Positions 6,551 through 23,973 are shown, counted from the first letter of the stretch. The stretch is DNA of 64,000 nucleotides from a virus (IMGVR_UViG_3300027754_000067:22543-86542), one strand, 5' to 3'. Notes: a model not told the origin generated them from the sequence alone. A program made the numbers and translations.

Positions 6551-6594
6551 TTTAATCCTTTGACTTCTGAACCAACAAAGGATAAGGTAAGAGC

Positions 6595-6951: not shown

Positions 6952-7057
6952 AATTCACACAAATTTCCAACCTATCTGATTTAATCCTTTGACTTTTCTA
7001 GCCTGACCTGATATAACAGGGATAGTTCAACGGCAACAAACAAAAGGGATAAAGAAC

Positions 7058-7270
7058 ATGGCGATTGCATATGTGAACTTCATTCAATGGGACACCACTA
7101 CCGACGAAGATCCTGCTGGTCTTGAGAAGCACGATCTTCCTACTTGTTTTGAGTTTGAGCTTGACTTGAATGATTTTATTAGCGAGGATGCTATTTCTGA
7201 TTGGATTACGGGTGAGTTGAGTGATGAGACCGGTTGGTGTGTTTCTGGATTCAACTATGTGATCAAGTGA
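7058..7270 (+). CDS. hypothetical acidic protein
   Basis: Promoter plus ORF; LSDETGWCV motif. Confidence 0.65.
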   Translation: MAIAYVNFIQWDTTTDEDPAGLEKHDLPTCFEFELDLNDFISEDAISDWITGELSDETGWCVSGFNYVIK

Positions 7271-7284
7271 AGGAGAAAAAGAAA

Positions 7285-7470
7285 ATGAAGCCTCTTGTAA
7301 AGCTTTCTGGTGTTGACGGCAATGTTTTTTCGATTATTGGGACGATGACACGTTCCATGAAGGCGCAAGGTCTTTTTAAGGAGGCTCAGGAGTTTTCGAG
7401 GAAGGCAATGGATTGTCATAGTTACGATGCTGTTTTGCAGCTTTGCTTTGAGTATGCCGATATTAGGTGA
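7285..7470 (+). CDS. small conserved phage protein
   Basis: AGGAG RBS; VKLSGVDGNVFSIIG...SYD pattern. Confidence 0.7.
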   Translation: MKPLVKLSGVDGNVFSIIGTMTRSMKAQGLFKEAQEFSRKAMDCHSYDAVLQLCFEYADIR

Positions 7471-7672
7471 TTAGCCTCACCAGAAGACATAGGATGCCCG
7501 TTAAAGGCTTCTGGTGTCAGAGATGACAGCTTATAGCTTGCCCGATTCTGATGCCTTTAATGAGGCGTTTAATGAGTCGGGCAAGTTATATGCCATTGCG
7601 AGATAGAATTCTGCGGCAAACACCTAAAAATTAATCCTTGACTTCTCAATCAACAAAAGGTAAGGTATTCTC

Positions 7673-8227
7673 ATGAACTTTGAAGACGAACTCTCTGCTA
7701 TCCGTTCTGAGGCTGTTAAAAACATTGAGGGTAGAGCGGATAGTCTCTTAGATATTCGTAATGAACATATTGGCACACCCGTTGCAGAGTTCATTGAAAG
7801 AATCATTGGCTGGTTTAATGATCCACAGAAGAGACTGCTTGGCTATCAAATCGGAGAATATATCTTTTGGGACGATGAATTCAACTTCTTAAAGAAGCTT
7901 TGTCAATTTGTTTCTCATGAAATGCTGGACGATGGTTGTTTCATTGTCAAATGGATGAAACCAGACTATGATTACATTGAGCATGAAATTAATGGAAAAG
8001 TATTAAAGCTTCCTAATGCTGTTTATGTTGATGGCCGTATTAGGTTGAAGGAAACTGACAAGGATGATCCAGAAGGAAGACCAGAAATCCATTACGGCGG
8101 AGATCTTGGCACACAAGATGCATCAGTCCTGCTTGAAGCAATGGATATTCTAGAGCAGCGGGATCTGGAACGCCATAATAGAATGATTGATCTCCAGAAC
8201 CGTCTTAAAGATCTTCGGAAAACCTGA
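7673..8227 (+). CDS. hypothetical protein
   Basis: 184-aa ORF with leaderless promoter. Confidence 0.75.
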   Translation: MNFEDELSAIRSEAVKNIEGRADSLLDIRNEHIGTPVAEFIERIIGWFNDPQKRLLGYQIGEYIFWDDEFNFLKKLCQFVSHEMLDDGCFIVKWMKPDYDYIEHEINGKVLKLPNAVYVDGRIRLKETDKDDPEGRPEIHYGGDLGTQDASVLLEAMDILEQRDLERHNRMIDLQNRLKDLRKT

Positions 8228-8278
8228 TTGACTGATTTTTCTTTTGACTTCTCCACCAACAAAAGGTAAAGTAATCCC

Positions 8279-8557
8279 ATGAGCAAGACGAACACGGATC
8301 AGGTTATCAAGATCGACGGCACGATTCTCCCTATCACCCCAAAGAACCCTAAGAAGGGATATTCTCTGGAAGAAATGTATCGGGCCATCGACACCAACAT
8401 GGTACAGATTGTCTCCACCATGGAGAGAAACACCATCATGGTCTGCGACGAAGAAGCAATGTATAATAGCAAGAGCTATAATGCTCTGGCTTCAATGATT
8501 GCAGGACAGCCCATTCTGGGAGATGTTCTTGTCTGCAACACCAAGAACGTTAAGTAA
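8279..8557 (+). CDS. DUF3846-like phage protein
   Basis: SLEEM...I....VQ.V......MVCDEE......N..AS......ILGDV pattern. Confidence 0.6.
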   Translation: MSKTNTDQVIKIDGTILPITPKNPKKGYSLEEMYRAIDTNMVQIVSTMERNTIMVCDEEAMYNSKSYNALASMIAGQPILGDVLVCNTKNVK

Positions 8558-8596
8558 TCTCTTTACTAATCCAGCAAGATAGGATAAGGTAATCCC

Positions 8597-8845
8597 ATGA
8601 GCAACACAAACATCACCGTTGAAGAGATGCTGTCCGGCAAGACTGTTACCATCATTGAAGATGATGCTGTTCCTGCAACTGGCACTCCACACCGGGCTTC
8701 ATGGGAAGCCAATCAGGCTTCTGGTGAAGAAGCAAAGGCTCTTCATGGGATTGCGGAACAAGCATGGAAGGGTTATGTAGTCAACTCCTTTGGTGGAGCA
8801 TTGCTCCGTAATGCCAAGATCGATTATCATGCCAGCCGAAAGTAA
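8597..8845 (+). CDS. hypothetical protein
   Basis: Leaderless promoter plus ORF. Confidence 0.6.
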   Translation: MSNTNITVEEMLSGKTVTIIEDDAVPATGTPHRASWEANQASGEEAKALHGIAEQAWKGYVVNSFGGALLRNAKIDYHASRK

Positions 8846-8929
8846 TTAATCCTCTGACGCAATCGTTTGCGGCAAACACCTAAAAATTAATCCTTTGACT
8901 TCTCAATCAACATAAGGTATAACAAGACC

Positions 8930-9112
8930 ATGGCAAAGTACGAAGTTACTGTTGTTTTCAAGGGACAAGTCAACTACATCGTGGAAGCTTCCTCTGAGGA
9001 AGAAGCAGAACAGCTAGGTCAAGATAAGTATTCCAATAATGATCCTGCCACCATTCTTGGCAATGAATGGCAATCTTGCGAGAATGTGATTGTTGAAAAG
9101 CTGGAAGATTAA
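8930..9112 (+). CDS. small acidic protein (VEASSEEEA type)
   Basis: Leaderless promoter; common small phage protein pattern. Confidence 0.65.
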   Translation: MAKYEVTVVFKGQVNYIVEASSEEEAEQLGQDKYSNNDPATILGNEWQSCENVIVEKLED

Positions 9113-9609
9113 AGCTTGACATATCCAGCAAGACATGATATGATCCGTTAAAGAAAGAGAAATCAAAAATGATCGAATTTCTGACTGTGATCTTTATGAT
9201 TACTTGCGTATTTGTAGCAATTAATGCAGGAATCATGCTTTTTGAGTGTGCAGATGAATTCTATCATCGAATTGTTTGCCGCAAAGATAATAAGAAGAAT
9301 AAAAAGAATAAAAAGAATAACTGGATTCTCTGAGCAATCCCTGATATATTAGATTTACCCCATCGACAGCAATCAAAAGGAAAAAACGATCATGGCAAAG
9401 AAGAGCGTTCTTTCAATCGTAGTCAAGGAATATCATCTCTCTCAGTCAAACCAGTGGGATTCAATCCTCAATGCGAATGACCGAGAGGAAGATCAGCCTG
9501 TATCGAAGGAGCAGCAAGAGGCAATTGATATTTATTATCATTCCCGCCCAACCAATCGACGTTGATTTAATCCTTTGACTTCTGAACCAACAAAGGGTAA
9601 GGTAAGAAC

Positions 9610-10176
9610 ATGAAGAAGATCACCGAAACGGAACTGAAGAACATTCTGGAACAGCACCAGCTTTGGCTTTCTATCAGTGGGCAGGGAGGAAAACGTGCAA
9701 ACCTCCGTGATGCAAACCTCACGGGTGCAAACCTCTATTGTGCAAACCTCCGTGGAGCAAACCTCATTGGTGCAAACCTCACGGATGCAAACCTCGAAGA
9801 TGCAATCCTCCGTGGTGCAAACCTCGTTGGTGCAAACCTCGGGGGTGCAAACCTCCGTGGTGCAAACCTCACGGATGCAAACCTCACGGATGCAAACCTC
9901 GAAGATGCAAACCTCCGTGGTGCAGACCTCGTTGGTGCAAACCTCGAATATGCAGACCTCGAATATGCAGACCTCGGGGGTGCAGACCTGACGAATGCAT
10001 ACCTCACGGGTGCAAACCTCAATGACACGATTCTTGAGAAGAATAAGGCAGAGAAGCAGCCCGATATTTCTTCTGTCAAGTCTGAAACCAGCACTCGTCA
10101 AGCTCTTGAAAAGCTTGCCAAGGAGCATGGTTTTAAGATTGATTTAATTTCTTTGAGTTCATCTGACTTTCTATAA
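9610..10176 (+). CDS. pentapeptide-repeat protein
   Basis: ANLxx repeats; shares N- and C-termini with 89 and 4875. Confidence 0.95.
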
Positions 10177-10238
10177 GGATTTAATCCTTTACATCACACA
10201 TTCCATCTGATATAACCAATCCACAAGGAAATCAAACA

Positions 10239-10604
10239 ATGCTTATTGATACAAAGGAACTGACGAACGTCAAGGATATTATTAATGGCTTCCATGTTGA
10301 AGCCAAGAGGACTTGGATTGGGCACTGGTGCGGATATATCACGATCCCATCTACACACCCGTGGGCACAGTCAGAAGAGCCTTATGCTGAAGAATGTCAT
10401 ATTAACGTTCATGGTGGTGTTACCTTTCTCGAAAAGGATAATGATGGGAATACAGTTGTAGGATTTGACTGCGGTCATTCCTGCGATGCTTCTCCTTCAT
10501 GGAGTGAACACAAGTCATTTACGTCATCTGGCGGTGAATATCGTGATATTTATTATGTGCTTGATCAACTGAAGAGCCTTGCTAGTCAAGCAAGCAAGTT
10601 TTAA
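10239..10604 (+). CDS. conserved phage protein (WCGY..HGGVTF..GFDCGH)
   Basis: Recognisable His/Cys motif set. Confidence 0.8.
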   Translation: MLIDTKELTNVKDIINGFHVEAKRTWIGHWCGYITIPSTHPWAQSEEPYAEECHINVHGGVTFLEKDNDGNTVVGFDCGHSCDASPSWSEHKSFTSSGGEYRDIYYVLDQLKSLASQASKF

Positions 10605-11129
10605 TAATAATCCATTGACTATCACCAAGGAATCTAGTATATTCCATCTATAACAAAGCAAACGAGAGAAAAGCCAAACATGGATAACAAGATTGTTTTC
10701 GTGGTTTTGGGGGGATATTTTTATGAGTCCTCCATGGTTTACGGTGTTTTCAATTTCAAGGCTGATGCAGAAGCATTTAAGAAGTCAAGACTTGCTGACG
10801 CAGACAATCCCCTTGATTATCTTTCCATTGAAGAATTTAAAGTGCAGTAAAGATTAGACTTCCTGGGAGATGACTGATATAGTCAGACCACAAGAGACAA
10901 ACAAACGAGGGAGATGATCCATGAACAAGTGTGTTTGTTGCGGCAATAACTCTGGTTTGGCGACTTGGTTTGCTATTCGGGCTGTCAAGGGGAAGATGTC
11001 TGGTAGGGTTTTTTTCAAAGGTACCATCATCTGCGATCATTGTTTGGAGAACTTTTCTGCGGCATATTAAAATAAAGCCTTGATCTTCAAAGGATCATCT
11101 GGTAAGATAAGAGCACAAAGGGAGAAACA

Positions 11130-11426
11130 ATGTTCTACACTTTCCGACAGAATAACAGCGGCGGGTATTTCAGTGGTCCTGTCCTTGTATGTGTGGAGTG
11201 CGATTCTCTGGAACAGGCAAACGATCAAGCGGAACTCAATGGAATCTGTTTTGGTATGTTTGGAAGTTGTGAGTGTTGCGGACCTCGCTGGTCTACGGCA
11301 TACGATCAGGATAGCTTGACTGAGACTCCCACTTATTATGGTGATCTATTGACTGATTCTGGAGAATCTTGGGTAATCCACTACAAGGATGGCACAAATC
11401 TTTCTGGAGGAAAGAATCGCCGTTAA
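11130..11426 (+). CDS. conserved phage protein (QNNSGG..CECCGPRW)
   Basis: RBS GGGAG; recognisable motif. Confidence 0.75.
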   Translation: MFYTFRQNNSGGYFSGPVLVCVECDSLEQANDQAELNGICFGMFGSCECCGPRWSTAYDQDSLTETPTYYGDLLTDSGESWVIHYKDGTNLSGGKNRR

Positions 11427-11480
11427 AGGCTGATTTAATTCTTTGACAAATCCAGCATCACCCTATAAGATATAAAAACA

Positions 11481-11708
11481 ATGAGGAACAGAACAATCAA
11501 CAAGCAAACCAATAATCTTCACTTATTGGTTGTTGACGAGGGTATGTTCACAGTAATTGTTGAAGATGATATTGGGATTTACTTGAGTACGATTTCAGAA
11601 TTTCTTACAATTGCAGAGCTTGCAAAGCAAGAAGCTAGCAAGGCTTTTCCTGCTTCAAGCGTATATATTTACACTCGTAAGGGGAAAGAGATTATCCAGC
11701 AAAAGTAA
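11481..11708 (+). CDS. hypothetical protein
   Basis: Promoter plus ORF. Confidence 0.55.
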   Translation: MRNRTINKQTNNLHLLVVDEGMFTVIVEDDIGIYLSTISEFLTIAELAKQEASKAFPASSVYIYTRKGKEIIQQK

Positions 11709-11759
11709 GTGCTGAATTAATCTCTTGACTTCTCAAACAAAAGAGGGTAAGGTAAGAAC

Positions 11760-11954
11760 ATGGAAACGACGAACAAGTGGGGAGTGGCAGAGTGGCAGGG
11801 TCGCAATCTGGTGGTGATTGCCAAGGTTCCAAGCATGGAGGATGCCAGCAAGCTTGCCAAGGGAAATCAGCATGTAATGAATCTGGATGCTGGCAATTGG
11901 GCATTGATCCATCAGGATGGCAAGGATATTCTGCGATTGGTTCGAGATTTTTAA
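11760..11954 (+). CDS. hypothetical protein
   Basis: Leaderless promoter plus ORF. Confidence 0.65.
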   Translation: METTNKWGVAEWQGRNLVVIAKVPSMEDASKLAKGNQHVMNLDAGNWALIHQDGKDILRLVRDF

Positions 11955-12012
11955 TCCTAGACTTCTGCAAAGCAACCTGATAGATTGATTGAAGAAAGGG
12001 AAGAGACAAAAG

Positions 12013-12216
12013 ATGTACACCACTAAGAACTTCAAGTCTAAGAAGGATCTCAAGACTGCGATTGCTGGAGGTGAGCGGATTGGGATTTTTACTCCCGGTC
12101 TTGGCACGGTCCCTGCAAACGGCACTGTGTATCTTGAGGGTCCGCACTATCCTCTGCCCCACAAGTGGTATGCTCAAGCCACGGTTGTCAATGGGATTGT
12201 GACGAAGGTCAAGTGA
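12013..12216 (+). CDS. small conserved phage protein (EGPHYP.PHKWYA)
   Basis: Promoter, RBS and ORF. Confidence 0.7.
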   Translation: MYTTKNFKSKKDLKTAIAGGERIGIFTPGLGTVPANGTVYLEGPHYPLPHKWYAQATVVNGIVTKVK

Positions 12217-12345
12217 TTTAACAGTGGGGAGCGCATACTTAAAACGCTCAAGTTTTGCGGCAAACACAATAAAAAACAATATTGTTTGACTCTTCTGACA
12301 AACCCTGATAGTATCAAAACATCGAAAGGGCAAAGGAACAAAACA

Positions 12346-12699
12346 ATGACGACCATCAACAAGACCTCTCCTGAGTTCGTTTCTTGGTTCAATGCTTGCC
12401 AGACCATGATCGATACCTATATGAGCAACAGTTTCCCTTCTCTGGATCGTGAAGTTCTGGAGATTGAGGAAGGAAGCAAGTTTATTAAGGTTGTCAAGGT
12501 TGGACGACATCAGCGGTGTGTTTACGCCTTTGTTGCCAAGAGCAGCTTCACTACCAAGACCTTTGGCACGGTTAATGCCGGTGAGATTTACAAGCCATCC
12601 TCCTACAAGGCTCCAGCAAAGCACGCCCGTGGCTCGATTCTTGATGCGTCCAATGGAATGAGTCGAATGACCTGTTATGGTCCCGAATATCTCCGCTAG
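12346..12699 (+). CDS. conserved phage protein (GEIYKP.S.KAPAKHARG.I)
   Basis: RBS AAGGA; recognisable motif. Confidence 0.75.
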   Translation: MTTINKTSPEFVSWFNACQTMIDTYMSNSFPSLDREVLEIEEGSKFIKVVKVGRHQRCVYAFVAKSSFTTKTFGTVNAGEIYKPSSYKAPAKHARGSILDASNGMSRMTCYGPEYLR

Positions 12700-12833
12700 C
12701 AAATAGCGTACCAAGGTGGGGAGCGTATACCAATCCAATAACGCTCAAGGGATGCGGCAAACATCTTAAATTTAATCCTAGACTTCTCCCAAGCAACCTG
12801 ATAGAGTGATTGAAGAAAGGCAAGGGTAACTCA

Positions 12834-13142
12834 ATGGCTTTCATCGCACCAGAGTTTGCTAATGTCGAGGCTTTCGTCCAATTCTGTTTCGATGATGACA
12901 AGGCAACCTTCATGCCAGGAGATGCACAAAAGATTGCCGCAAACACCAAGCGCCCCATGCAGGAAGTGATGGCAGAGCTTAAGGGTTACGGTTTGAAGTG
13001 CATCCTTAATCACGTCCAGAAGGACATTAGAGGCTGCACGAGCAACCCTAACGGTACTTTCCCGTTCTCTGGTGCGAACTCGACGCATACCACCTCTGGT
13101 GGCTCTAATATCCAAGGTTTTGCAGGGCGATCAGGCTCCTAG
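12834..13142 (+). CDS. hypothetical protein
   Basis: Promoter, RBS and ORF. Confidence 0.65.
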   Translation: MAFIAPEFANVEAFVQFCFDDDKATFMPGDAQKIAANTKRPMQEVMAELKGYGLKCILNHVQKDIRGCTSNPNGTFPFSGANSTHTTSGGSNIQGFAGRSGS

Positions 13143-13274
13143 TAAGTAGGATGCCAAGTGGGAGGGCGCATACTTATCACGCCCGAATATTGCGGCAAAC
13201 ACCTTAAAAATAATACTTTACTTCTCCGAGAGCATCCTGTAAGATTATCTACATCAACCAAGAAAGAAAAAACA

Positions 13275-13484
13275 ATGACAATGCTCGCAATCATGATTGT
13301 TGCTACTGTTCTTTCTGGTATTGCTACTACCCTTTCTTTTTTTGTTTGTATGGATGCTTCTACTTCTAGAAAGTATATCATTCAAGCAACGCTTTGGTTT
13401 TTGTTTTCTTTTGTTGCATTCATTTTGTTTGGGTGTTACACCATGATTTATTTTATTAGAGAAATCGCTCTTCATTGTCCGTGA
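13275..13484 (+). CDS. small membrane protein
   Basis: Two hydrophobic segments. Confidence 0.55.
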   Translation: MTMLAIMIVATVLSGIATTLSFFVCMDASTSRKYIIQATLWFLFSFVAFILFGCYTMIYFIREIALHCP

Positions 13485-13562
13485 GCAGTATCGAAAATAT
13501 TATTTTTCTTGGTGCCAATTAAATCCTTTGACTTCTCCAGCAACAAAAGATAAGGTAAGACC

Positions 13563-13748
13563 ATGAAGCGAACTGATACAGAACACGCAAGCTGCCATGA
13601 AGAAGATGATTTCTGCCATCACTGTGAGCATTATGAAAGCACTGATAGTCAAGTGATTAGAAACCATCATGCAAAGACTGCACGAGAGTTTCGCAAGGGT
13701 GATAAGAAGCGCATCATGGAAGAATGGGGCGACCCTACCAAGGACTGA
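13563..13748 (+). CDS. hypothetical His/Cys-rich protein
   Basis: Leaderless promoter plus ORF. Confidence 0.55.
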   Translation: MKRTDTEHASCHEEDDFCHHCEHYESTDSQVIRNHHAKTAREFRKGDKKRIMEEWGDPTKD

Positions 13749-13792
13749 TTTAATCGGTTGACTTCTCCAGCAATAAAGGGTAGGATACATCA

Positions 13793-14056
13793 ATGGCAAA
13801 CTTCAAGCATGATTGCGACAAATGTATTCTTCTGAGTTCAACAGAATATAAGTTTGACGATAACGAAGACCTATATCTTTGTCCAAACTCTTCTATTGAC
13901 AAGAAAGGATCAATCGTTGTAAGGTACAGTGACGAAGGAAGTGACTACCAATCTTTCCCTGTAAAAATGATTGAAGAGAACTCAGGACACCTGATTCAAT
14001 TGCCAGTATCATTAAGAATTGGTTATGAGATCGCAAAGCAAAAGGAATTGATTTAA
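13793..14056 (+). CDS. hypothetical protein (HDCDKC..DLYLC)
   Basis: Leaderless promoter plus ORF. Confidence 0.65.
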   Translation: MANFKHDCDKCILLSSTEYKFDDNEDLYLCPNSSIDKKGSIVVRYSDEGSDYQSFPVKMIEENSGHLIQLPVSLRIGYEIAKQKELI

Positions 14057-14271
14057 TCGGTTGACTCTTTGATCTGTTTCTGATAGTATCATTTTCATCG
14101 GTAGGAACAAAGAAAGGCCGTCAACAATGACTCTCTTCATCTCTCTCTTCATTGTGGTTTCTTTTGCTGGTCTTAAGATTGTTCGATTGACCGATTAATG
14201 GTTTGACTTTCTAACGAGCATCCTGTAAGATCAGTCAACATCAACGGACAACAGCAAGGAGAATAAAGATC

Positions 14272-14523
14272 ATGGCTTCTATTCACTACAAGTCTTTTGT
14301 TGATTTTGTCAACACTGGCAAGACTCAGCGGCATGGAGCTTTGGTTATGAAGGGTGATACGGTTGTTTCATATAGCACGGTGATTGCGAAGGTTGACCGT
14401 GCGAACAAGGTTATTGACTTTTGCCCCAAGAAGTATTCTGTTACTACTTCTCGGCATCAGAGTGCGGTAACGACTGGCCTTTCATTCCTTACTTCTGGGT
14501 GGAGCTTGAACCATAGCCTGTAA
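14272..14523 (+). CDS. conserved phage protein (SYST.IA..YSVTTSRHQ)
   Basis: AAGGAG RBS; recognisable motif. Confidence 0.75.
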   Translation: MASIHYKSFVDFVNTGKTQRHGALVMKGDTVVSYSTVIAKVDRANKVIDFCPKKYSVTTSRHQSAVTTGLSFLTSGWSLNHSL

Positions 14524-14906
14524 GGCTTCCAGAAGCCATTTAAAGGCTTCCTAGATCCGATCGTGCCTGATAGTGGCATGGGATGCAGGAAGCCTTTAAA
14601 GAGGCTTATAGAGCTTGATGCAAAGGTCAAACCAAGTTTTGCGGCAAACACCTTAAAATTAATCCGTTGACTATCTCACCAGAATAACCTATAACAAGGA
14701 CATGGAAGAGATGAGCAATACCACAACGGCAGAAGAAGAGGAATACTTCCTGCGGCTTCAGCAAGAAGACAAGGATCATGCCAAGTGGCTTGAGCAAAAT
14801 CCACTCTTTGAAGATGATCCAGATCCTCAGAAGTATTGATCGTTTTATTCTTGACTCTTAGATCTACTTCTGGTAGAGTGATTGAAGAAAGCGAGAGGGA
14901 AACATC

Positions 14907-15155
14907 ATGGTTCAGTTCTCTGATGGCTTCAAGGTTTCGATTGGGGATACCGTTGGATTCTTTACTCGCCATGGTTCCAATGGTAGAGGTGAAGTAATTG
15001 GCTTCTCCCGCAGCAGGGGAGCAACCACTGTGCTTGTCAAGCCCAATGCAGAAACCAATTTCGGATCTTATGACCGTTGGCCCTTGAAGGATGGTGGCTT
15101 TTATTCACGCATGGAATCCGAGGGTCTCTTTGGGGGAGAGATTTTCCGCAAGTAG
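14907..15155 (+). CDS. hypothetical protein
   Basis: Promoter, RBS and ORF. Confidence 0.6.
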   Translation: MVQFSDGFKVSIGDTVGFFTRHGSNGRGEVIGFSRSRGATTVLVKPNAETNFGSYDRWPLKDGGFYSRMESEGLFGGEIFRK

Positions 15156-15229
15156 CATACCAAGTTTTGCGGCAAACACCTTAAAATTAATCCTTTGACT
15201 TCTCAACCAACAAAGGGTAAGGTAAGAAC

Positions 15230-15418
15230 ATGGAAGCAAACCTCAGGCAGTATCAGATTGATGCAATCAACCAAGGATATCCTTGGGAGTGTGCTTGCGG
15301 AGAACTACATCGCACGAGAGAATCAGCAGTTAGTTGCCGCAAGTGTCGGCAGTACTGCATGGATCATGCCAATAGATCCAATCCCATTGATCTCCGCACC
15401 ATCAATCTTAACAAGTAA
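15230..15418 (+). CDS. small Zn-ribbon-like protein
   Basis: CACG..H...CRKC. Confidence 0.65.
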   Translation: MEANLRQYQIDAINQGYPWECACGELHRTRESAVSCRKCRQYCMDHANRSNPIDLRTINLNK

Positions 15419-15779
15419 GCTAATAGTGTAAAGCAAAAAATTAATTAATGGAAAAACCGGGAAGCGCATGGTATAAACGCTTATTATTCCGATCGCAAAA
15501 GAAAATTAATTCTGCGAACACTATATATCCAGTGAAAGCTAATTGACTCTGCCTAAGAATGAACGGCGCTGTATGCTAGATATGCATGACGGCAGACAAG
15601 AAAAGTTTTCAATGCCTTGAATCAGTTAGAATAACATAACTCCAGCCTGAAGTCAATCAATTTAAACATATTGAAACGACCAAGGGCTTTCGGTGTTTGT
15701 TGCCAATGCAAAAACAATGCCGCAAACATACCAATTTTAATCCTTTGACTCTTCAAGCAGAATCAAGTAAGGTAAGAAT

Positions 15780-15965
15780 ATGAAGAGCCGATTGAATCAA
15801 ATCAAGGCGTCACTCACTGCACCTCGCATGATCGGAAACCACAAGGAATGCGGTGGTGAGGTGTTCTATCACTCTGGCCGCAGTTTTGCTTATCGTCAGT
15901 GCAGTCAGTGTGGCCAAAACGGAATGCATGGAACCCTTAGCCCCACACTTGAAACAGAGCGATAA
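15780..15965 (+). CDS. small Zn-ribbon-like protein
   Basis: HKECGG...CSQCG. Confidence 0.6.
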   Translation: MKSRLNQIKASLTAPRMIGNHKECGGEVFYHSGRSFAYRQCSQCGQNGMHGTLSPTLETER

Positions 15966-16028
15966 AAGAACTTCTCTGATTTAATCCTTTGACAATCCAA
16001 CCAACAAAAGGTAAGGTAAGGTAAGAGC

Positions 16029-16244
16029 ATGAACAACGAGATCTCTGAGTATGAAGGCTGGGAGAATGATTACGATAACTCCCATGGTGACACTCAAGGT
16101 GATACCTTTACCGACGATGGTGCCGATCCCGGTGGAGACAACTACGATGATTCAATGGATGGTGACTTCGACTCTGGCATGGCAAGTGCAGGTTGGGGTA
16201 CAGATGAATCTTATGGATATTTCGGAAACGATGAAGATTTCTGA
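16029..16244 (+). CDS. very acidic small protein
   Basis: D/E-rich, no Lys or Arg; DSMDGD.DS..ASAGWGTDE.YG. Confidence 0.75.
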   Translation: MNNEISEYEGWENDYDNSHGDTQGDTFTDDGADPGGDNYDDSMDGDFDSGMASAGWGTDESYGYFGNDEDF

Positions 16245-16367
16245 ATAATCCCTTGACTCTTCCTTAGCTTCCTGATACTCTCTCTTAACTGAAAACAAAG
16301 ACACAAACCAAGTCCAGAGATAAAAGAATCTCTTGACAATCCAAACAGGAAAGTGTAGAGTAGAACA

Positions 16368-16913
16368 ATGAAGATCACCGCTAACGATCTGGTGGCCGCT
16401 GTTTCTAACGCTTCTGGCTTCTGTACGGTAACGACCCGTACTGTACCCCGAATGAAGGGTGGCAAGAGCAACCCTTATGCCAATCGTGTTTGGAATCGTA
16501 CTGAGCGATGCGGAATGTTTGGCGTCTCTTATGAGAATGCCGTCCGCTCCCAGCGGACTCGTGAAGGCCACGAGGAGCCTAGCAGCTTCCATGCCGAGTC
16601 TCTCTGGAAGGGTGCTGGAAAGCGTCTCAATCGGAACATCGTGGAGAACGTGAACACTGGCAAGCTTTACATGGTGATGTATCCCGTCCGTGCAAACGGT
16701 ATGCCAGCGAACCGCAGCACGGAATGGTTTGTCGATGATCGCCCTGCAACGGAGCAGGAGGTGGCAGAGATCAAGCAATACCTGTACCAGCCTTCCTTTA
16801 ATCCTGCTGCAAAGCAGGAGACTGAAGAAGCGGTAGCTTGGCGCACCTTTTGCCTTGAGAATGTCGAGGTTGTTAACTGTGAGGGTAACACCTTTGAGGT
16901 GTCTTACAGCTAG
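16368..16913 (+). CDS. conserved hypothetical phage protein
   Basis: 181-aa ORF with its own promoter. Confidence 0.75.
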   Translation: MKITANDLVAAVSNASGFCTVTTRTVPRMKGGKSNPYANRVWNRTERCGMFGVSYENAVRSQRTREGHEEPSSFHAESLWKGAGKRLNRNIVENVNTGKLYMVMYPVRANGMPANRSTEWFVDDRPATEQEVAEIKQYLYQPSFNPAAKQETEEAVAWRTFCLENVEVVNCEGNTFEVSYS

Positions 16914-16920
16914 CAACCAT

Positions 16921-16970
16921 CATGCCAAGGACAAGGGTTCTGCCATAAACGGAACCCTTGTCTCGGCATC
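16921..16970. repeat. long hairpin, paralogous to 18555-18600
   Basis: ATGCC..GACAAGGGTTC/GAACCCTTGTC..GGCAT. Confidence 0.7.
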
Positions 16971-17167
16971 CTACCAGAACCCTCCTAAGCGCCTTTAAAC
17001 GGCCCTAGAAGGCTCGCAAACGCCAACAACGGGCAATCTGCCATTGGCGCAGCAAGAGGCATAGAATAGCCTTTAAATCAGTCATGCAAAGGCAATGCCA
17101 AACTCTGCGGCAAACACACTAAATTTAATTCATTGACTCTTCAATCAGAATCCAGTAAGGTAAGAGC

Positions 17168-17422
17168 ATGAACAGCAGAGATCATGAGGAACTAACAGAG
17201 ATCCACGAGAAGATGCTTGAACTCGTGAATGATGTTGAAAGAATCATGCGACGAGAAGGAGGGATTGAATATGAGCGAGCCAAGGGATATTGGCTTGCAA
17301 ACATTAAAATGGGATTGACAAACAATCATGGGTATCTTAGTATGCCCATGTTCAACATGGAAACTGCAATCAGTGCGCTGGAACCATGCGAGGATGAAGA
17401 TCAGGAAGAAGATTCCGATTAA
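17168..17422 (+). CDS. hypothetical protein
   Basis: Leaderless promoter; ends EEDSD. Confidence 0.7.
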   Translation: MNSRDHEELTEIHEKMLELVNDVERIMRREGGIEYERAKGYWLANIKMGLTNNHGYLSMPMFNMETAISALEPCEDEDQEEDSD

Positions 17423-17493
17423 GTTAATCCCTTGACTCTCCCTTCAAACCCTGATAATCTCTCCTAACTGGAACGGAACAAAGGAGCAACAAA

Positions 17494-17724
17494 ATGAAGT
17501 GCTGCAAGGTTTCTATCTCTGGAATGATGCACTCCCATGATTGCCTTGACAATCCAAGGGAATATGTCTATAGCTTCTATCAGGATTCCGACGACTCCGA
17601 CGATGATACTATCCAAACGGCTCACGTTTCAATCGTCGAGCAAAACGAAGAGCCCGAATCCGATCATGGCACCATGATTGCATCAGATGATTCCGAGGAT
17701 GACAACGACGAAGATTCCGATTAA
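17494..17724 (+). CDS. acidic hypothetical protein
   Basis: AAGGAG RBS; ends DEDSD. Confidence 0.6.
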   Translation: MKCCKVSISGMMHSHDCLDNPREYVYSFYQDSDDSDDDTIQTAHVSIVEQNEEPESDHGTMIASDDSEDDNDEDSD

Positions 17725-17861
17725 GTTAATCCCTTGACTCTGCAATCCAAGTCTGATATAACAGAATAGTCGGAGGGAAGAACAAAACAAAGAGCAGCAA
17801 AAGAATCACTGGACTTCTGAATCGCAATCTGGTAAAACAGTCTCTAGAAGGAATCAGACAA

Positions 17862-18179
17862 ATGAACTTCACCATCCCGAATCGTATCATTGTCTCTAAC
17901 TCCCTTGGTTTCCGCTATCATGCGAAGAATCCCGGCAAGCTCTTTGCCATGTCTGTCAAGGGACAGGATCGTGAAACCGTGTTCACGGTGCTTTCACTCA
18001 AGGGAAGCATGGGCCGACCTTGCAAGGGTGATACCAAGGGTTTCGGAGTCAAGACTCATGCCGTGATCCGAAACGGATTCACTGGCCGAAAGTCCACCGT
18101 GCTTCTGTCAACCCTTGTTGACCGCAATGTGCGATATGTTGGCATGAAGCATGAAGTGATCGCCTACTTTAGCCGGTAA
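17862..18179 (+). CDS. basic hypothetical protein
   Basis: Promoter, RBS and ORF. Confidence 0.7.
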   Translation: MNFTIPNRIIVSNSLGFRYHAKNPGKLFAMSVKGQDRETVFTVLSLKGSMGRPCKGDTKGFGVKTHAVIRNGFTGRKSTVLLSTLVDRNVRYVGMKHEVIAYFSR

Positions 18180-18306
18180 GCAATAACTGTACCAGTGGGG
18201 AGCGCATACTTAAAACGCTCAAATTTTGCGGCAAACACCTTAAAATTTAATACCTTGACTCTCCCTTCAATCTCTGATAGAGTGATTGAAGAAAGCGAGA
18301 GACTGA

Positions 18307-18546
18307 ATGACAACTTACATCCTCAAGAATGGTGAGATTGTTTTGTTTCTTGTCATGGCAACGGAACCTATTGGTGGATGCCGTTTACCTTATCTTAAAA
18401 CATTCTCGGAGGATGAAGCATTGAATGCCGCAATGACGCTTGAATCTGATTGGGGCGCTGGTGCAAGGGTAAAGATTTGTGAGCACTACATCTCCCAAAG
18501 AATGTGGGAACACAAGTACAAAACCCCTTGGCCTATCGCTCAATAG
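18307..18546 (+). CDS. hypothetical protein
   Basis: Promoter plus ORF. Confidence 0.55.
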   Translation: MTTYILKNGEIVLFLVMATEPIGGCRLPYLKTFSEDEALNAAMTLESDWGAGARVKICEHYISQRMWEHKYKTPWPIAQ

Positions 18547-18554
18547 CAAACACC

Positions 18555-18600
18555 ATACCAAGGCAAGGGTTCCAATCCAACGGAACCCTTGCTCTGGTAT
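18555..18600. repeat. long hairpin, paralogous to 16921-16970
   Basis: ATACC..GCAAGGGTTCC/GGAACCCTTGC..GGTAT. Confidence 0.7.
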
Positions 18601-18807
18601 CCCTCTCTAATATGCCTCTCTCTGGCATCAGGAACGCCCAACAGAGCCGTTAAATCCTTTCAACGGACAATCTACCGTTAGGGAAATGAGAGCCCAAGAA
18701 ACGCTGCAAATCTGTCAATAGGAATAGCAGGGCAAACACCTTAAAATTAATCCTTTGACAATCTAACAGGAATCCAGTAAGATCAAAACAGATCAAAGAG
18801 AGCCTAG

Positions 18808-18834
18808 ATGAACAAAAGCCGAGACGGCCCCTAA
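18808..18834 (+). CDS. micro-ORF MNKSRDGP
   Basis: Own promoter; first of three tandem units. Confidence 0.55.
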   Translation: MNKSRDGP

Positions 18835-18932
18835 TAAAATCCTTTGCAAACCTCTGGAGTGCAGACCTCAATTAAATGCCTTGACTCTTCAATCAGAATC
18901 CAGTAAGATCAGAACATAACAAAGGAACCTAG

Positions 18933-18959
18933 ATGCAAAAGATCCGAGACGGTCCCTAA
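18933..18959 (+). CDS. micro-ORF MQKIRDGP
   Basis: Own promoter; AAAGGA RBS. Confidence 0.6.
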   Translation: MQKIRDGP

Positions 18960-19070
18960 TAAAACTCTGTGCAAACTACACGGGTGCAAACCTCAATCAA
19001 TGCCTTGACTTCTCATTCAGAATCCAGTAAGATCAGATCACAAAGCAGATAACTAAAAGGAACCAACTAG

Positions 19071-19100
19071 ATGCAAAAGATCCGAGACGGTCCTATCTAA
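19071..19100 (+). CDS. micro-ORF MQKIRDGPI
   Basis: Own promoter; AAAGGA RBS. Confidence 0.6.
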   Translation: MQKIRDGPI

Positions 19101-19166
19101 ACTTCCTACAATCAATGGTTTGACATACCGGGGAGCGCATGGTATAAACGCTCATTACTAAGAAAA

Positions 19167-19255
19167 GCCCGAATGGTGGAATCGGCAGACACCGGAGACT
19201 TAAAATCTCTTGCTGCGAAAGTAGCGTACCAGTTCAAGTCTGGTTTCGGGCACCA
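19167..19255 (+). tRNA. trnL: tRNA-Leu(TAA)
   Basis: Full cloverleaf; anticodon arm GGAGA-CTTAAAA-TCTCT; long variable arm; encoded CCA; TTGACA-17-TATAAA promoter at 19120-19148. Confidence 0.95.
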
Positions 19256-19327
19256 TAAAAGAGATTTTAAGTCTCTTGACTTAAAACAAACAATCCTGTA
19301 AGCTAAGAACATCAAGGGAGCAAAACA

Positions 19328-19498
19328 ATGCAAACCAAGAAGCAAGCCATCAAGGATTTTCGGGAATTTCTCTTGCCTTCCATCCCAAACAATGATACCA
19401 TCGCCAAGCAAGAAGCATGGAATAATTATACTGATGCTCTTTGCAAGAGCCGTTTTATTACCCTTCGCCAATATGAAAACTGGACTAACCCCTTCTGA
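19328..19498 (+). CDS. small conserved phage protein (EAWNNYTDALCK..QYENW)
   Basis: GGGAG RBS plus ORF. Confidence 0.7.
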   Translation: MQTKKQAIKDFREFLLPSIPNNDTIAKQEAWNNYTDALCKSRFITLRQYENWTNPF

Positions 19499-19564
19499 TT
19501 TAATCCCTTGACTATCCAGTGAGAGTCTGATAAAGTCAGGAAAGATCAGGGAGCAAAAGAAACC

Positions 19565-19765
19565 ATGAAGATCAACCATCGCACTGGATCTGTCAAGCGT
19601 TTGGACCATCACGAGAACTATCGCTTTAACAAGTCTGGCTTGAAGGAGGAAGGTAACACGGTTCGCCGCTGCATGGATCGTGCCGCAATCAAGAACAGCC
19701 TTGAAGGCAACGATGGCACGCTCTTTGCTCGCAGCAAGGAAGGAAACCCTTGGAACTTCGATTGA
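19565..19765 (+). CDS. hypothetical protein
   Basis: Promoter, RBS and ORF. Confidence 0.6.
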   Translation: MKINHRTGSVKRLDHHENYRFNKSGLKEEGNTVRRCMDRAAIKNSLEGNDGTLFARSKEGNPWNFD

Positions 19766-19850
19766 TTTGCAAGTAGCATACCAAGTTTTGCCGTAAACAT
19801 ACCAATTTTAATCCTTTGACAATCCAACCAACAAAGGGTAAAGTAAGAAC

Positions 19851-20150
19851 ATGGAAACGACGAACAAGGTTTGGACAGAGGCCGCAATCGTCTCTCTGCT
19901 CCAGAGCAACAATCGTGCCGTCGAAAGGGCAATCCTGGCAATCTTTGCTCGGCAAACGGAGGATGAGAAGTCAACGGAATGCACCCGGCACGAGAACTCT
20001 CGTGGATTCTCTGCGGCTGATGCCCGTACCGGCTCCTACATGGCACGCTGGATTAGCAGCGGAAAGCGTCTCGATGGAAAGTTTCTTGACAAGGCCCGAA
20101 AGATGGCCGTCAAGTACCGCAAGCAACTGGTAGAGGTTGCCAACGGCTAG
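19851..20150 (+). CDS. conserved phage protein (RQTEDE...N..GF...DA)
   Basis: Recognisable motif. Confidence 0.75.
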   Translation: METTNKVWTEAAIVSLLQSNNRAVERAILAIFARQTEDEKSTECTRHENSRGFSAADARTGSYMARWISSGKRLDGKFLDKARKMAVKYRKQLVEVANG

Positions 20151-20361
20151 CAAACAGCATACCAGTGGGAGGGCGCATACTTTATCACGCCCATTGCCGT
20201 CAACAAAACTCTGCGGCAAACAAACAAATTTAATTACTTTACTTCATTCCCTAATCATGCTAATGTCAGGACACATCAGACAACGGCAACCAACAAAAGC
20301 AAGCACAAGGGAATCAAAACAATCCCTTGACAATCCAACCAACAAAGGGTAAAGTAAGAAC

Positions 20362-20832
20362 ATGGAAACCAAGAGCAACACGGTTCACATCTTTCAGGCG
20401 GCTGGTCTCGGCGTCGGTCCCTTCAAGCTTCACCATGTATCCGGTGAGGGAGGAAAGTGCCAGTACTGTGCCACTCCGATTCTGTGGCGTTTCTATCTCA
20501 ATGGCATTGACGGCTCTACTTTCTTCGTTGGATCGGATTGTGTCATGAAGACCGGCGATGCGGGACTCATGAAGATTGTTGACGCAGAAGTCAAGCGCCG
20601 AATGGCAGAAGCCCGAAAGGTCCGTGAGGATGCCAAGCTGGCATCTGTCAAGGAAAGCATGAAGGATGCCAACGTGCTTGCCAAGCTGGCAACCCTCCCA
20701 CACCCGAATGGTTACTATGCCCGCAATGGCAAGACTCTTGCAGACTATGCCTCGTGGATCGTGAAGTACGGTGGCAAGACTGCAATGCTCAACCTTGGCA
20801 AGAGTATTGCAAAGGCTACCGTCTCGGCCTAG
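20362..20832 (+). CDS. Zn-binding hypothetical protein
   Basis: CQYC...FFVGSDCV motif. Confidence 0.75.
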   Translation: METKSNTVHIFQAAGLGVGPFKLHHVSGEGGKCQYCATPILWRFYLNGIDGSTFFVGSDCVMKTGDAGLMKIVDAEVKRRMAEARKVREDAKLASVKESMKDANVLAKLATLPHPNGYYARNGKTLADYASWIVKYGGKTAMLNLGKSIAKATVSA

Positions 20833-21060
20833 TCAATCTGACAAACGGTGGGAAGGCGCATACCGGGAATCACGCCTTAGACGGCTCTAATAGCCCCTCC
20901 AGTGACCGCAAACCACAAGGGACCATAAAGGGTAGCAGAACAAAACAGAAGCCAACCAAAAGGCTCCCAAGAGATCGGGCAAACACCATGCCAAACTCTG
21001 CGGCAAACATACCAATTTTAATCCTTTGACAATCCAACCAACAAAGGGTAAAGTAAGAAC

Positions 21061-21216
21061 ATGGAACACAACGAAAACATCGAGTGCTTCGCTTGTGCTG
21101 GATTCTCCTATTACATGGGATCGCTTGGCGATCTAGACTGGTACAGATGCCGCAACTGCGGCTTTGAACAATACCAGCAAACTACTCCCGATTCAGAAGA
21201 AGAAGATTCCGAGTAA
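21061..21216 (+). CDS. small Zn-ribbon protein
   Basis: CFAC...CRNCG; ends EEEDSE. Confidence 0.65.
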   Translation: MEHNENIECFACAGFSYYMGSLGDLDWYRCRNCGFEQYQQTTPDSEEEDSE

Positions 21217-21275
21217 TCAATTGATTCTTTAATCATTAACTGATATATTGGTTCCATCTAACCAATGGAACCAAT

Positions 21276-21476
21276 ATGCTACCTAATACCTGTACCTGTA
21301 ACCTCTCTTCATGCAATACCTGTACCAACCAAAACCTAAAAGAACTCTGGGAAGAACCAGAATTCTTGGCATGGAACCTGCATAGAGAATCACAATGGTT
21401 CAATGAACTTGAATCCATGTCGGAAGAACAATGGCAAACAATGTGCCAAACTTCACCGCAATCAATCCAAACTTAA
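21276..21476 (+). CDS. hypothetical protein
   Basis: ORF only. Confidence 0.4.
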   Translation: MLPNTCTCNLSSCNTCTNQNLKELWEEPEFLAWNLHRESQWFNELESMSEEQWQTMCQTSPQSIQT

Positions 21477-21520
21477 CCCTTGACTAATCCAGCAAAACAT
21501 CATAAACTAAAAGGGAAACC

Positions 21521-21763
21521 ATGAAGTACACACTCACTGACTCCCTCTCACCAGAACAAGTAATCGTTTGCAAGTTGGATGCCTACTTCATGGCATCCCA
21601 TGCTTGCAACAACTATACCAGAAATCAGCATGAAGTAATGGTATTCCCTTGCAGCAAAGATGGCAAGGTAATTGCATGGGATGCCGTAGATCAATTCCGA
21701 TACTCCAGCATCGAAGAGTTTATCGGCAATGAATGTGCCAACCAAGACGATTTCGACCACTAA
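21521..21763 (+). CDS. hypothetical protein
   Basis: Promoter, RBS and ORF. Confidence 0.6.
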   Translation: MKYTLTDSLSPEQVIVCKLDAYFMASHACNNYTRNQHEVMVFPCSKDGKVIAWDAVDQFRYSSIEEFIGNECANQDDFDH

Positions 21764-21900
21764 ACAATCCAAAACAATTACTAGACTCTCAACCCGCAAT
21801 CGAGTATATTGAATCATCAGAGAGAAACAACGAGCAAAACAAAAGGGTAAACAAAAGTTTAATCCTTGACTCCTAAACCTCTGCATGGTAAGGTGAGAGC

Positions 21901-22905
21901 ATGAAGATCGGAATTGAGATCGAGTTCTTCGCACCGATCAGCAAGTATGAACTTGCTACCAACCTCCGAAACCAAGGAATTGCCGTCGAGGCAACCGGCT
22001 ACACCCATTCCGTGTCTTCTGACTGGAAGATCGTTGACGACGGTTCCGTCTTAGGTATGCCCGCTCACCATGGCATGGAACTTGTTAGCCCGATCCTTAA
22101 CAGCGACTCTGATGTCGATATGGCAACCCTGCGACGCATTTGTCGTGCCATCCAGAAGCTTGGTTGTCGGGTCTCTAAGGCTTGTGGGCTGCACATTCAC
22201 GTTGACGCCACGGACCTGACGGCGGCACAAGTATTGCAGGTCTGGACCCGGTATCAGACCATGGAAGGGGAGATCGACACCCTCATGACTAGCAATAGGC
22301 GTGCCAACCTTGGCTCCTACTGTCAGTCGCTGCGGAACCTCATGGTTCACGGTCAAACCAAGGAAGCACTTGCACGGAGTGCCGATCGTTACTTCAAGGT
22401 CAACCTGCAATCCTTGAACCGTCATGGAACCATTGAGTTCCGCAAGCACTCTGGCACGATCAATGCAGATACCATTATCAACTGGGCGTCCTTCTGTGTC
22501 GGGTTCGTTGAAGCGTCCCTTGTGAGTGCTGGCACGAGCGTTGCAAGCCGCACCGAAACCACTACGGTGCATCCTACGGGCCTCAACACTGGTATGCTGG
22601 GGATCTATCGGGCGCTCTTGCAAGCCCCGCACCACAATATGACCGTGGCAGAGATCGCTCTGTCAACGGGTCTCGGAGAGAATAGCGTGCGGGCCTACAT
22701 TAGCACAATGCATACCAGACACGGTGTGAATGTGCGGCACGCTTATCGGGGTTCATGCAATATTGTCTTGACACCCGTTACCACTACTCGCACCATTGCA
22801 GCAAGCGAGCCAACGGCTGACACCATCTGGCGTGGCATCGATCCTGCAACCGTCGCCTTCTACATGGAGCGTGCCCAAGAACTTGCTGGCTTCGCTAGCA
22901 GGTAG
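21901..22905 (+). CDS. putative amidoligase (COOH-NH2 ligase fold) with HTH-like insert
   Basis: GIEIE, W.IV.DGS, ELVSP, CGLHIH, RY.KVN, TIEFR motifs. Confidence 0.85.
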   Translation: MKIGIEIEFFAPISKYELATNLRNQGIAVEATGYTHSVSSDWKIVDDGSVLGMPAHHGMELVSPILNSDSDVDMATLRRICRAIQKLGCRVSKACGLHIHVDATDLTAAQVLQVWTRYQTMEGEIDTLMTSNRRANLGSYCQSLRNLMVHGQTKEALARSADRYFKVNLQSLNRHGTIEFRKHSGTINADTIINWASFCVGFVEASLVSAGTSVASRTETTTVHPTGLNTGMLGIYRALLQAPHHNMTVAEIALSTGLGENSVRAYISTMHTRHGVNVRHAYRGSCNIVLTPVTTTRTIAASEPTADTIWRGIDPATVAFYMERAQELAGFASR

Positions 22906-22912
22906 CATGCCA

Positions 22913-23700
22913 AAGGAAACGGGGGGGGACTGCAAACCCCCGGCATGCCTTTTGTTTATTCAACCCCCATGCCAACCCTGTACCCCCATAGGGCATGCAC
23001 AACCCATGCCATACCCCACCCTATAGGGGTACCCCTTACACCCCTCCCTGTTTCGAGGGGGGTACCCCAACCATGATACCCGGCACCTTCGGCACGAGAT
23101 GGGCTAAACCCACACATCTCGCACCAAAATTTTTTCTGGGTATTTTTTCATTTTGAACCTTTTTATTTACCTCACCACTGGCAATCATTTTTAGGATTTC
23201 CGTTTTTGCGACCATATTGTTTGCATCATCAAAATTTTTTCTGGGAATTTTTTCATTTTGAAACCTTTTTGGCACCCATAATACTGGCACCATTTTATTG
23301 ATTTCGGACATCGGTGCCATTCGAACGATTGGTGCCAAAATTTTTTTGGGAAATTTTTTCATTTCAAACCAATGTTGCGTGCGTGGCCTCTGTTCCATGG
23401 GCACCATGTTTTTATGGGCACCGTTTTATGTGGCACCATGTCATGTGGCACCAGTTTCTGATGCCCTATTTTGACATCATTTATTATTTTGCTGTGTGTG
23501 TGGCACCGTATTTTTATGGGCACCAGTTTTATGTGGCACCATGTTTTCGGGCACGATGTTTTGTGATATTGTTGTTTTGTGATTATTTTAATGATGTTTT
23601 GTGATGTGGCATGATGATTAGGGATGATTTTAAAAAATCACTATGGGTCTTGGTGCCCTTCGGGCACATTGCATGAACATTTTATGGATATTTTTATGAA
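22913..23700. repeat. Non-coding repeat block: putative replication origin or packaging terminus
   Basis: G/C runs; two GGGGTACCCC palindromes; three ~34-bp direct repeats (23126, 23231, 23337); more than 12 GGCAC(C) units; C/A-rich to G/T-rich switch. Confidence 0.6.
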
Positions 23701-23973
23701 TATTTGATTGATATTCTGGATGGTGGATGAGAGATGGGTGGTGGAGGGCAGAGTATTTGGATGTTGTGATTGGTTGCTTTGTTGGGTTGCTTTGTCGGGT
23801 TGTTCTACCGGGTTGCTTTATCGGGATGCTTTGCGGGGCTCTGTGAGGCTTTGTGGTGGCTTGGAATATGAAGGATGGGCAATGTGGTGTTCTGGTTGTT
23901 TGCTTCCTTTCCTGGTATTTTTAAATTGACAGTGGAATATAACCAATAGAAGAGGGAGTATATATTTAGAAAT

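Follow-up and report, generated by a model that had tools for sequence, protein, structure and literature searches.

Why should a phage carry, inside and behind a series of small early genes, many copies of a sequence resembling the -24/-12 element recognized by the bacterial sigma factor sigma-54 (RpoN)? The question is raised by a 64-kb stretch of viral DNA (the window, comprising bases 22,543-86,542 of an 86.5-kb IMG/VR virus record that is also labelled G000), for which an earlier note had listed 13 minus-strand boxes with the arrangement GG-N10-GC. All 13 were present, each starting one base to the right of the position given (e.g. 7581-7595, not 7580). Twelve conformed to the strict pattern TGGYA-N7-TGC, and the remaining one (given as 14619), a one-off intergenic variant beginning TGGTT on the minus strand at 14620-14634 (TGGTTTGACCTTTGC), has T for A at -22. 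The list was sound as far as it went but incomplete, as 45 strict sites were found between positions 7,000 and 23,500 of the window.

The motif and its likeness to sigma-54 sites

Over the whole window 53 matches to the motif were found against 3.61 expected, and the maximum among 100 dinucleotide shuffles was nine, in agreement with the enrichment over a shuffled background that had been anticipated. Spacing provided the most telling control. Between 7,000 and 23,500 a spacer of N7 gave 15 plus-strand and 30 minus-strand sites, while all other spacers from 0 to 20 gave at most four and six on the respective strands; GG and GC are therefore exactly 10 nt apart, as in sigma-54 promoters, and are enriched at N7 only. 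Variation is low at each of the eight core positions (CGGYA, the most frequent one-change variant, occurs eight times), and position -23 is C in 32 and T in 13 of the 45 sites. Both site counts and a position weight matrix scan demonstrated a density that climbs rightward along the gene block: successive 2-kb intervals from 7-9 kb to 21-23 kb hold 4, 0, 7, 0, 7, 6, 7 and 15 exact sites, and the remaining 70 kb of the record contains only ∼11 strict sites.

The extended RpoN consensus is YTGGCACGr-N3-TTGCW, and the RpoN site profile reportedly stems from Barrios and co-workers in 1999. The profile of the 45 sites follows this extended consensus, including five positions that had not been used in choosing the sites, namely Y at -27 (34/45), Y at -21 (38/45), R at -20 (37/45), T at -15 (29/45) and A/T at -11 (34/45). 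The likeness to sigma-54 sites that had first drawn attention to the region is thus borne out by the spacing, the core and these independent positions. A sigma-70-family promoter was rejected as a description of the sites, whose elements lie 7 nt apart compared with the 16-18 bp required between hexamers, and the genes' own TTGACT-N17-TAAGGT promoters are separate from the sigma-54-type sites. The extracts of a chromatin immunoprecipitation sequencing (ChIP-seq) study of Escherichia coli (Bonocora et al., 2015, PMC4591121) give examples of the sigma-54 consensus and describe positions 3, 4 and 14-16 of the 17-mer motif as 'important'; in that motif GG and TGC stand at the same spacing as in the phage sites.

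Selection on the sites and their layout

The sites fall within a block of 42 small genes at 6,000-22,905, all on the plus strand and each with its own sigma-70-like promoter, either of the form given above or an extended -10. Genes were called by an open reading frame (ORF) heuristic rather than by a gene caller; the frames are backed by Pfam matches (Amidoligase_2, dCMP deaminase, DUF3846, DUF7296 and DUF7717) and by the substitutions relative to L009, which amount to 5.9%, 5.0% and 20.4% at codon positions 1, 2 and 3 respectively. L009, a 5.2-kb metagenome contig with ∼90% identity, was the one locus returned by a metagenome scan for close relatives and the sole close relative in the conservation test.

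Selection maintains the motif as a nucleotide sequence, irrespective of the proteins encoded. This follows from the combination of an excess over codon shuffles and conservation of the core in L009. In 500 synonymous-codon shuffles of the 40 genes from 7,000 on, which keep every protein and the codon usage, a mean of 4.8 and a maximum of 11 intragenic sites arose compared with the 33 observed. The motif is again concentrated at N7 in L009 (7 + 18 sites, with three or fewer at other spacers), and 24 of the 25 sites covered by the contig are kept. The core differs between the two sequences at one of 194 positions, against 457 of 4,664 elsewhere (Fisher P = 1e-7); at codon position 3 the figures are 1/52 and 199/975 (P = 2e-4), and in non-coding DNA 0/48 and 151/1,737 (P = 0.03). 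Ten of the 11 changes within the spacer fall at -19 to -16, which are information-free in the site profile, and the eleventh is an A to G change at -20.

Twelve of the 45 sites lie at gene ends or between genes (class I) and all 12 are antisense to the genes. The earlier observation that many boxes overlap a stop codon was upheld, as four start on the G of a TAG stop (12699-12713, 16913-16927, 18546-18560 and 20150-20164) and two hold the TAG within the spacer (15148-15162 and 22898-22912), with two more beginning 1 nt past a TAA (18180-18194) and 4 nt past a stop (19769-19783). Three further class I sites are intergenic and lie 68-78 nt upstream of the next ATG (7581-7595, 17086-17100 and 20979-20993, the distance being 68 nt for the latter two), and the last (22997-23011), flanked by inverted-repeat arms, is in a gene-free block of 1 kb (22,906-23,973) which forms the right bound of the field.

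The boxes had also been described as lying at the 3' ends of genes and as all opposing them. Both statements hold for the listed subset; among the strict sites 33 of 45 are wholly inside coding sequence and 15 are sense, and a purely antisense gene-end layout accounts for the 12 class I sites only. Orientation bias is absent among the intragenic sites, which divide into 18 antisense (class II) and 15 sense (class III, comprising every sense site). Class II shows no positional bias, with five of 18 within 125 nt of a stop compared with 7.3 expected, whereas 12 of the 15 class III sites lie 125 nt or less before their own stop (6.1 expected, p = 0.001). A common codon register (T GGC AYR NNN NNT GCx, divided by codon) is shared by 13 of the 15 sense and 14 of the 18 antisense intragenic sites and encodes common residues (Gly-Thr-x-x-Ala). 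Distances between neighbouring sites are also structured: none of 23-53 bp was seen against 4.6 expected (P = 0.007), and eight of 54-70 bp were seen against 2.3 expected (P = 0.001), a count that is not fully independent as some of these pairs sit in two possibly paralogous genes.

Candidate occupants of the sites

The motif, its spacing, its layout and the selection upon it are directly established; from them we infer both the identity of the binder and the effect of binding. All 15 sense sites lie inside genes and none is positioned to drive one, and the class I sites point away from the next gene. Together with the neutral intragenic orientation and the lack of neighbours 23-53 bp apart, this argues for occupancy by a bulky complex, and as the 33 intragenic sites are paid for by codon choice and synonymous purifying selection, binding itself is arguably useful. 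To our knowledge, the sigma-54 holoenzyme is the only form of bacterial polymerase that is silent on DNA until an ATPase fires it. We tentatively favour, with confidence that stops short of even, the explanation that the field consists of docking sites for the host sigma-54 holoenzyme, which would act by occupancy as a sink and as a barrier at gene ends. The phage would have written high-affinity -24/-12 sites of the sigma-54 type into the distal 16 kb of its small, sigma-70-driven early genes, with codon choice fitting them inside genes in either orientation. The putative occupant, host RNA polymerase-sigma-54 holoenzyme in a stable, silent closed complex, would be held or trapped by the field and may form a protein barrier between one-gene units at the gene ends, where antisense sites are placed on stop codons and sense sites within 125 nt of the end of the gene. 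If an ATP-dependent activator were to fire the sites, convergent transcription over the distal early block would be expected. To judge from the sequence, a sponge or roadblock would suit orientation-neutral intragenic sites better than the antisense silencing which had also been proposed.

Silent sigma-54 sites have a precedent in E. coli, where the holoenzyme is inactive in transcription at most or all of its sites; according to extracts of the ChIP-seq study there are 135 sites genome-wide, of which 85 are intragenic and 58 of these 85 sense (PMC4591121). As far as those extracts go, the E. coli and phage sites are alike in their GG-N10-GC geometry, their flanking preferences, their mostly intragenic location and their conservation beyond the need of the protein sequence. 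The E. coli sites differ in being sparse and sense-biased, whereas the phage has 45 sites in 16.5 kb (an estimated ∼100 times denser) without intragenic bias, and binding is observed in E. coli and predicted for the phage sites.

A second point of comparison, and one that speaks for sigma-54 docking, is the unrelated cultured Vibrio phage pVp-1 (JQ340389), whose genome contains 12 motif sites compared with two for a control pattern. Five extended-consensus sites are clustered in 2.8 kb (75,922-78,689) adjoining the pre-early genes A2, A1 and dmp; a minimum of four fall in gaps free of genes, and one of the five is the same 15-mer, letter for letter, as window site 12,699. Vibrio, the host genus, has sigma-54. 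The pre-early (first-step-transfer) region of T5-like phages resembles the block described here in grouping small early genes between repeat regions devoid of genes, and by analogy with T5-like phages a two-step entry into the cell may be imagined for this phage. The pVp-1 cluster differs in having five sites rather than 45, and no kinship between the two phages is implied.

It is conceivable, if doubtful, that DNA-bound sigma-54 holoenzyme serves unrelated groups of phages as a device rather than in its role in transcription. Poised closed complexes arrayed over the final stretch of early DNA would trap sigma-54, turn off sigma-54-dependent host responses and mark or block the boundary of the early block by the iteron region, as a stop to early transcription or DNA entry or as an origin platform, and would be released by an ATP-dependent activator. 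No description of a dense, two-strand field of sigma-54 sites in a phage was found in the literature covered, supplementary site lists being outside that coverage, and the nearest precedents there are single sigma-54-like phage promoters such as that of YuA, considered below. If sigma-54 is the reader, trapping or parking of a host sigma factor on phage DNA would be a new phage-host interaction. The region would also provide a compact natural system for the function of silent sigma-54 sites, many of which are intragenic in bacteria and unexplained in purpose.

Several observations weigh against docking by the host sigma-54 holoenzyme. The core of the sites is stricter than that of natural sigma-54 promoters, as a dedicated sequence-specific protein would also make it. 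Two relatives of the phage were recovered with an amidoligase profile (G001, 260 kb and 70% complete, and G002, 123 kb), with DnaE proteins 57-59% identical to that of the phage; a phage-encoded enhancer-binding protein or RpoN homologue, suggested previously, was sought and no Sigma54_activat (PF00158) or Sigma54_DBD gene was found in the 86.5-kb record, G001 or G002, all of which are incomplete. G001 and G002 also have no such cluster of sites. A device based on a host enzyme might be expected to be common to relatives; differing hosts or gaps in their early regions may account for its absence. The presence of rpoN in the host of this phage is presumed; a suggested myxobacterial link was unsupported, the record being a freshwater phage fragment of 35-48% G+C. 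The 18 antisense intragenic sites are evenly spread and as roadblocks would hinder the phage's own genes, the 12 gene-end sites come from a duplicated module and hence are not independent events, and the conservation test rests on one relative of 5.2 kb.

Some of these points are shared by the next explanation, in which the likeness to RpoN is coincidental and the reader is a sequence-specific DNA-binding protein without relation to sigma-54, whose gene would belong to the host or to the three quarters of the phage genome outside the record. Such a protein might silence the early region, have an architectural role or be connected with the iteron block. We consider this explanation rather improbable on balance, while a phage DNA-binding protein tied to the gene-free block is a serious rival to sigma-54. 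It would account for the strict eight-position core, the restriction of the field to one phage lineage, the lack of an activator or rpoN gene and the neutral orientation of the intragenic sites, and it is consistent with a site density that climbs toward the gene-free block, where one kind of iteron contains TGGCAC. Those iterons have C at -20 where the sites have a purine, however, and the sites show no enrichment of GGCACC; nor was a candidate DNA-binding protein detected among the 48 proteins scanned against Pfam. Moreover, as -27, -21, -20, -15 and -11 all lean the RpoN way in addition to the core and the spacing, a chance likeness of the site of an unrelated protein seems unlikely, and clustering of the motif in pVp-1 points to a conserved host reader.

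A third explanation, which we judge unlikely, is that the sites are true enhancer-dependent promoters fired by a host or phage activator, perhaps from solution. Antisense RNA from the 30 minus-strand sites would then silence the early genes, and genes that follow the 15 sense sites would gain alternative transcripts from them. The consensus is complete, including A/T at -11, and all 12 gene-end sites point backwards; antisense promoters are possible for these 12, and more widely if the activator acts from solution. The concentration of sense sites in the last 125 nt of genes also recalls the intragenic sigma-54 promoters of next genes described for E. coli in extracts of PMC4591121. Among phages, the extracts of PMC10914365 (citing Ceyssens et al., 2008) describe a sigma-54-like promoter region with a mapped start in Pseudomonas phage YuA, alongside sigma-70 promoters; as described there it is a single promoter region used for expression, and differs in this from the dense, two-strand, intragenic field seen here. 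The placement of a sigma-54 promoter, upstream of and pointing at the gene that it drives, was not observed in the field. Antisense promoters would leave the 15 sense sites and the neutral intragenic orientation (15/18) unexplained, along with the lack of positional bias in class II. No conserved enhancer-like upstream element was recognized at the intragenic sites and none of the three incomplete records has an activator gene, which a host activator might replace, while the face-to-face pairs of sites 55-67 bp apart would collide on firing.

It is very improbable that the motif is instead an RNA element of the plus strand, such as a post-stop-codon hairpin, pseudoknot or terminator module. 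Gene-end sites do form part of a repeated module of stem-loop and promoter, and in two cases one half of the site (CATGCC at 16913 and ATACCA at 18546) makes up the base of a highly stable hairpin, with energies of -29.5 and -30.2 kcal/mol and z-scores of -5.9 and -7.9. The other four of the six gene-end folds are no more stable than shuffled sequence (z from -0.98 to +0.27), and the left half of the block contains modules with a hairpin and promoter and no site. Moreover, 33 sites are intragenic, 15 of them in the opposite orientation and free of hairpins.

Type I restriction targets are bipartite, and phages avoid them. A type I-like restriction-modification or methylation target, despite the similar form of 5 nt + N7 + 3 nt, has scarcely any probability, as phages would not accumulate such targets, the spacer is biased at -21, -20 and -15, unlike that of a type I target, and neither a methylase nor a specificity subunit turned up in the Pfam scan of 48 proteins. 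That the sites merely follow from composition or from protein motifs, as the single codon register of most intragenic sites might suggest, is excluded by the dinucleotide shuffles, spacing controls and codon shuffles.

Site positions, cassettes and the surrounding sequence

Sense sites of class III are located, with the distance to the stop in brackets, at 8107-8121 (stop 106 nt on), 12102-12116 (100 nt), 12564-12578 (121 nt), 16175-16189 (55 nt), 17667-17681 (43 nt), 19714-19728 (37 nt, facing the class I site at 19769), 20727-20741 (91 nt), 20796-20810 (22 nt) and 22833-22847 (58 nt, facing the class I site at 22898). Others are at 7771-7785, 21367-21381, 21661-21675, 22452-22466 and 22530-22544. 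The antisense sites of class II are at 8637-8651, 11833-11847, 12542-12556, 12903-12917, 15357-15371, 18022-18036, 20657-20671, 21313-21327, 21606-21620, 21726-21740, 22136-22150, 22292-22306 and 22703-22717, with three more that are among those retained in L009 (16468-16482, 16692-16706 and 16775-16789) and the sole site lost there, by a change of core C to A (17935-17949). Two sites overlap at 21432-21448, one on each strand (TGGCA-N7-TGCCA). The amidoligase gene contains the sites at 22136, 22292, 22452, 22530, 22703 and 22833.

The class I sites form part of a repeated cassette consisting of the site, often a hairpin, the sequence TGCGGCAAACA, an A+T-rich stretch and a sigma-70 promoter; in the left half of the early block the cassettes comprise hairpin and promoter without the site. 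TGCGGCAAACA is a conserved upstream promoter element, occurring 22 times on the plus and three times on the minus strand between genome position -15,994 and window position 20,999, always ∼13-19 nt upstream of an early-promoter -35 TTGAC. A family of short hairpins, GG(G)GAGCG-CATAC(C/T)...-CGCTC, follows genes at 1,100, 2,890, 12,226, 12,718, 18,197, 19,130 and other positions, and a member also precedes the tRNA-Leu gene at 19,167. The loops contain CATACCA, the letters of the -24 half of the site on the opposite strand. With a stem-loop and, behind it, a strong early promoter of sigma-70 type in the gaps between small genes, the cassettes have the anatomy of PeSLs, the promoter-early stem-loop cassettes described for T4-type phages (Arbiol et al., 2010, PMC2839356). 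In the extracts of that paper the PeSLs are likewise repeated cassettes between small, non-essential genes, and cassette content varies among close relatives in both cases; a sigma-54-type box is unmentioned in those extracts, whereas 12 cassettes of this phage carry one, facing backwards. The likeness is one of cassette layout and does not imply that the phage is T4-type. L009 is collinear with window 16,244-22,315 in three blocks, with some of the cassettes between them absent or replaced, and contigs from Logan contain many joints between promoter modules; these differences and joints fit cassette shuffling of the PeSL kind.

The gene-free block at 22,906-23,973 separates the early genes from the A+T-rich remainder of the record. 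It contains arrays of GGCACC and GGTTGCTTT iterons, the former comprising 13 copies (TGGCACC[A/G]TGTTTT) 15-17 bp apart in both orientations, as well as three A+T-rich repeats of 105 bp, five 13-bp GGGTTGCTTTGTC repeats and G+C-rich palindromes (GGGGTACCCC, twice). The GGCACC iterons were considered as boxes with the -24 half only, and this was rejected, as the GC element is missing and C stands at -20. The cumulative GC skew has a local dip at 20-24 kb, and the block is a candidate origin; by analogy with T5 it is also a candidate injection-stop region.

CheckV rates the 86.5-kb record as 24% complete, from which the full genome is probably ∼360 kb. The phage is uncultured and is present in freshwater metagenomes, the stretch being found in whole or in part in 20 run rows from 16 studies, of which one row may be its source. 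The G+C content is 40-48% in window 1-23,000 and 33-38% in the remainder. The 86.5-kb record, G001 and G002 yielded no homologue of RNA polymerase beta, and the phage family therefore seems to depend on the host core polymerase, which accords with occupancy of the sites by a host enzyme; G001 has a sigma-70-family gene at C1:163,092-163,307, in an open frame of 272 aa. The DnaE protein is just 25-28% identical to its closest matches in cultured phages, and the named cellular homologues of the amidoligase (34-41% identical) are taxonomically scattered, with several in Spirosomaceae. Four proteins (P0001-P0004) indicate that further relatives of 70-95% identity exist. No match was obtained on comparing the 14-22 kb and 30-50 kb regions with the phage collection by megablast, on searching viral_contigs with the amidoligase and DnaE as single queries and with the promoter-module pattern, or on scanning the window against Rfam. 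The amidoligase profile recovered 80 viral loci, and in none of them do the sites cluster comparably (seven at most, where other spacings averaged 1.75). The 13 loci matched by an 18-nt gene-end pattern were rejected as chance matches, being without BLAST similarity to the phage and without enrichment.

Elsewhere in the window a homing-endonuclease-like gene with GIY-YIG, NUMOD3 and HTH similarities (37,417-38,442) directly adjoins the DnaE gene (38,474-42,184), and a TnsA-like/NUMOD3 gene lies at 53,797-54,927. Genes encoding pentapeptide repeats contain very regular 15-bp DNA repeats (6,595-6,951, 9,610-10,176, 48,485-48,961 and in the genome upstream); the pattern TGCA-N11-TGCA from these repeats occurs 212 times in genome 1-29,500 and dominated a dyad search. 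In the 105-135 kb region of G001 the sole find of that search was a distinct intergenic repeat of its own, TTGGTTTCTTTATCCAAcaaaag. Three tRNA-Leu genes are present, at 4,727 (CAA), 19,167 (TAA) and 28,591 (TAA), and window 18,755-19,100 holds three tandem units that each consist of a sigma-70 promoter and a tiny ORF (MNKSRDGP, MQKIRDGP and MQKIRDGPI), with products ending ...RDGP.

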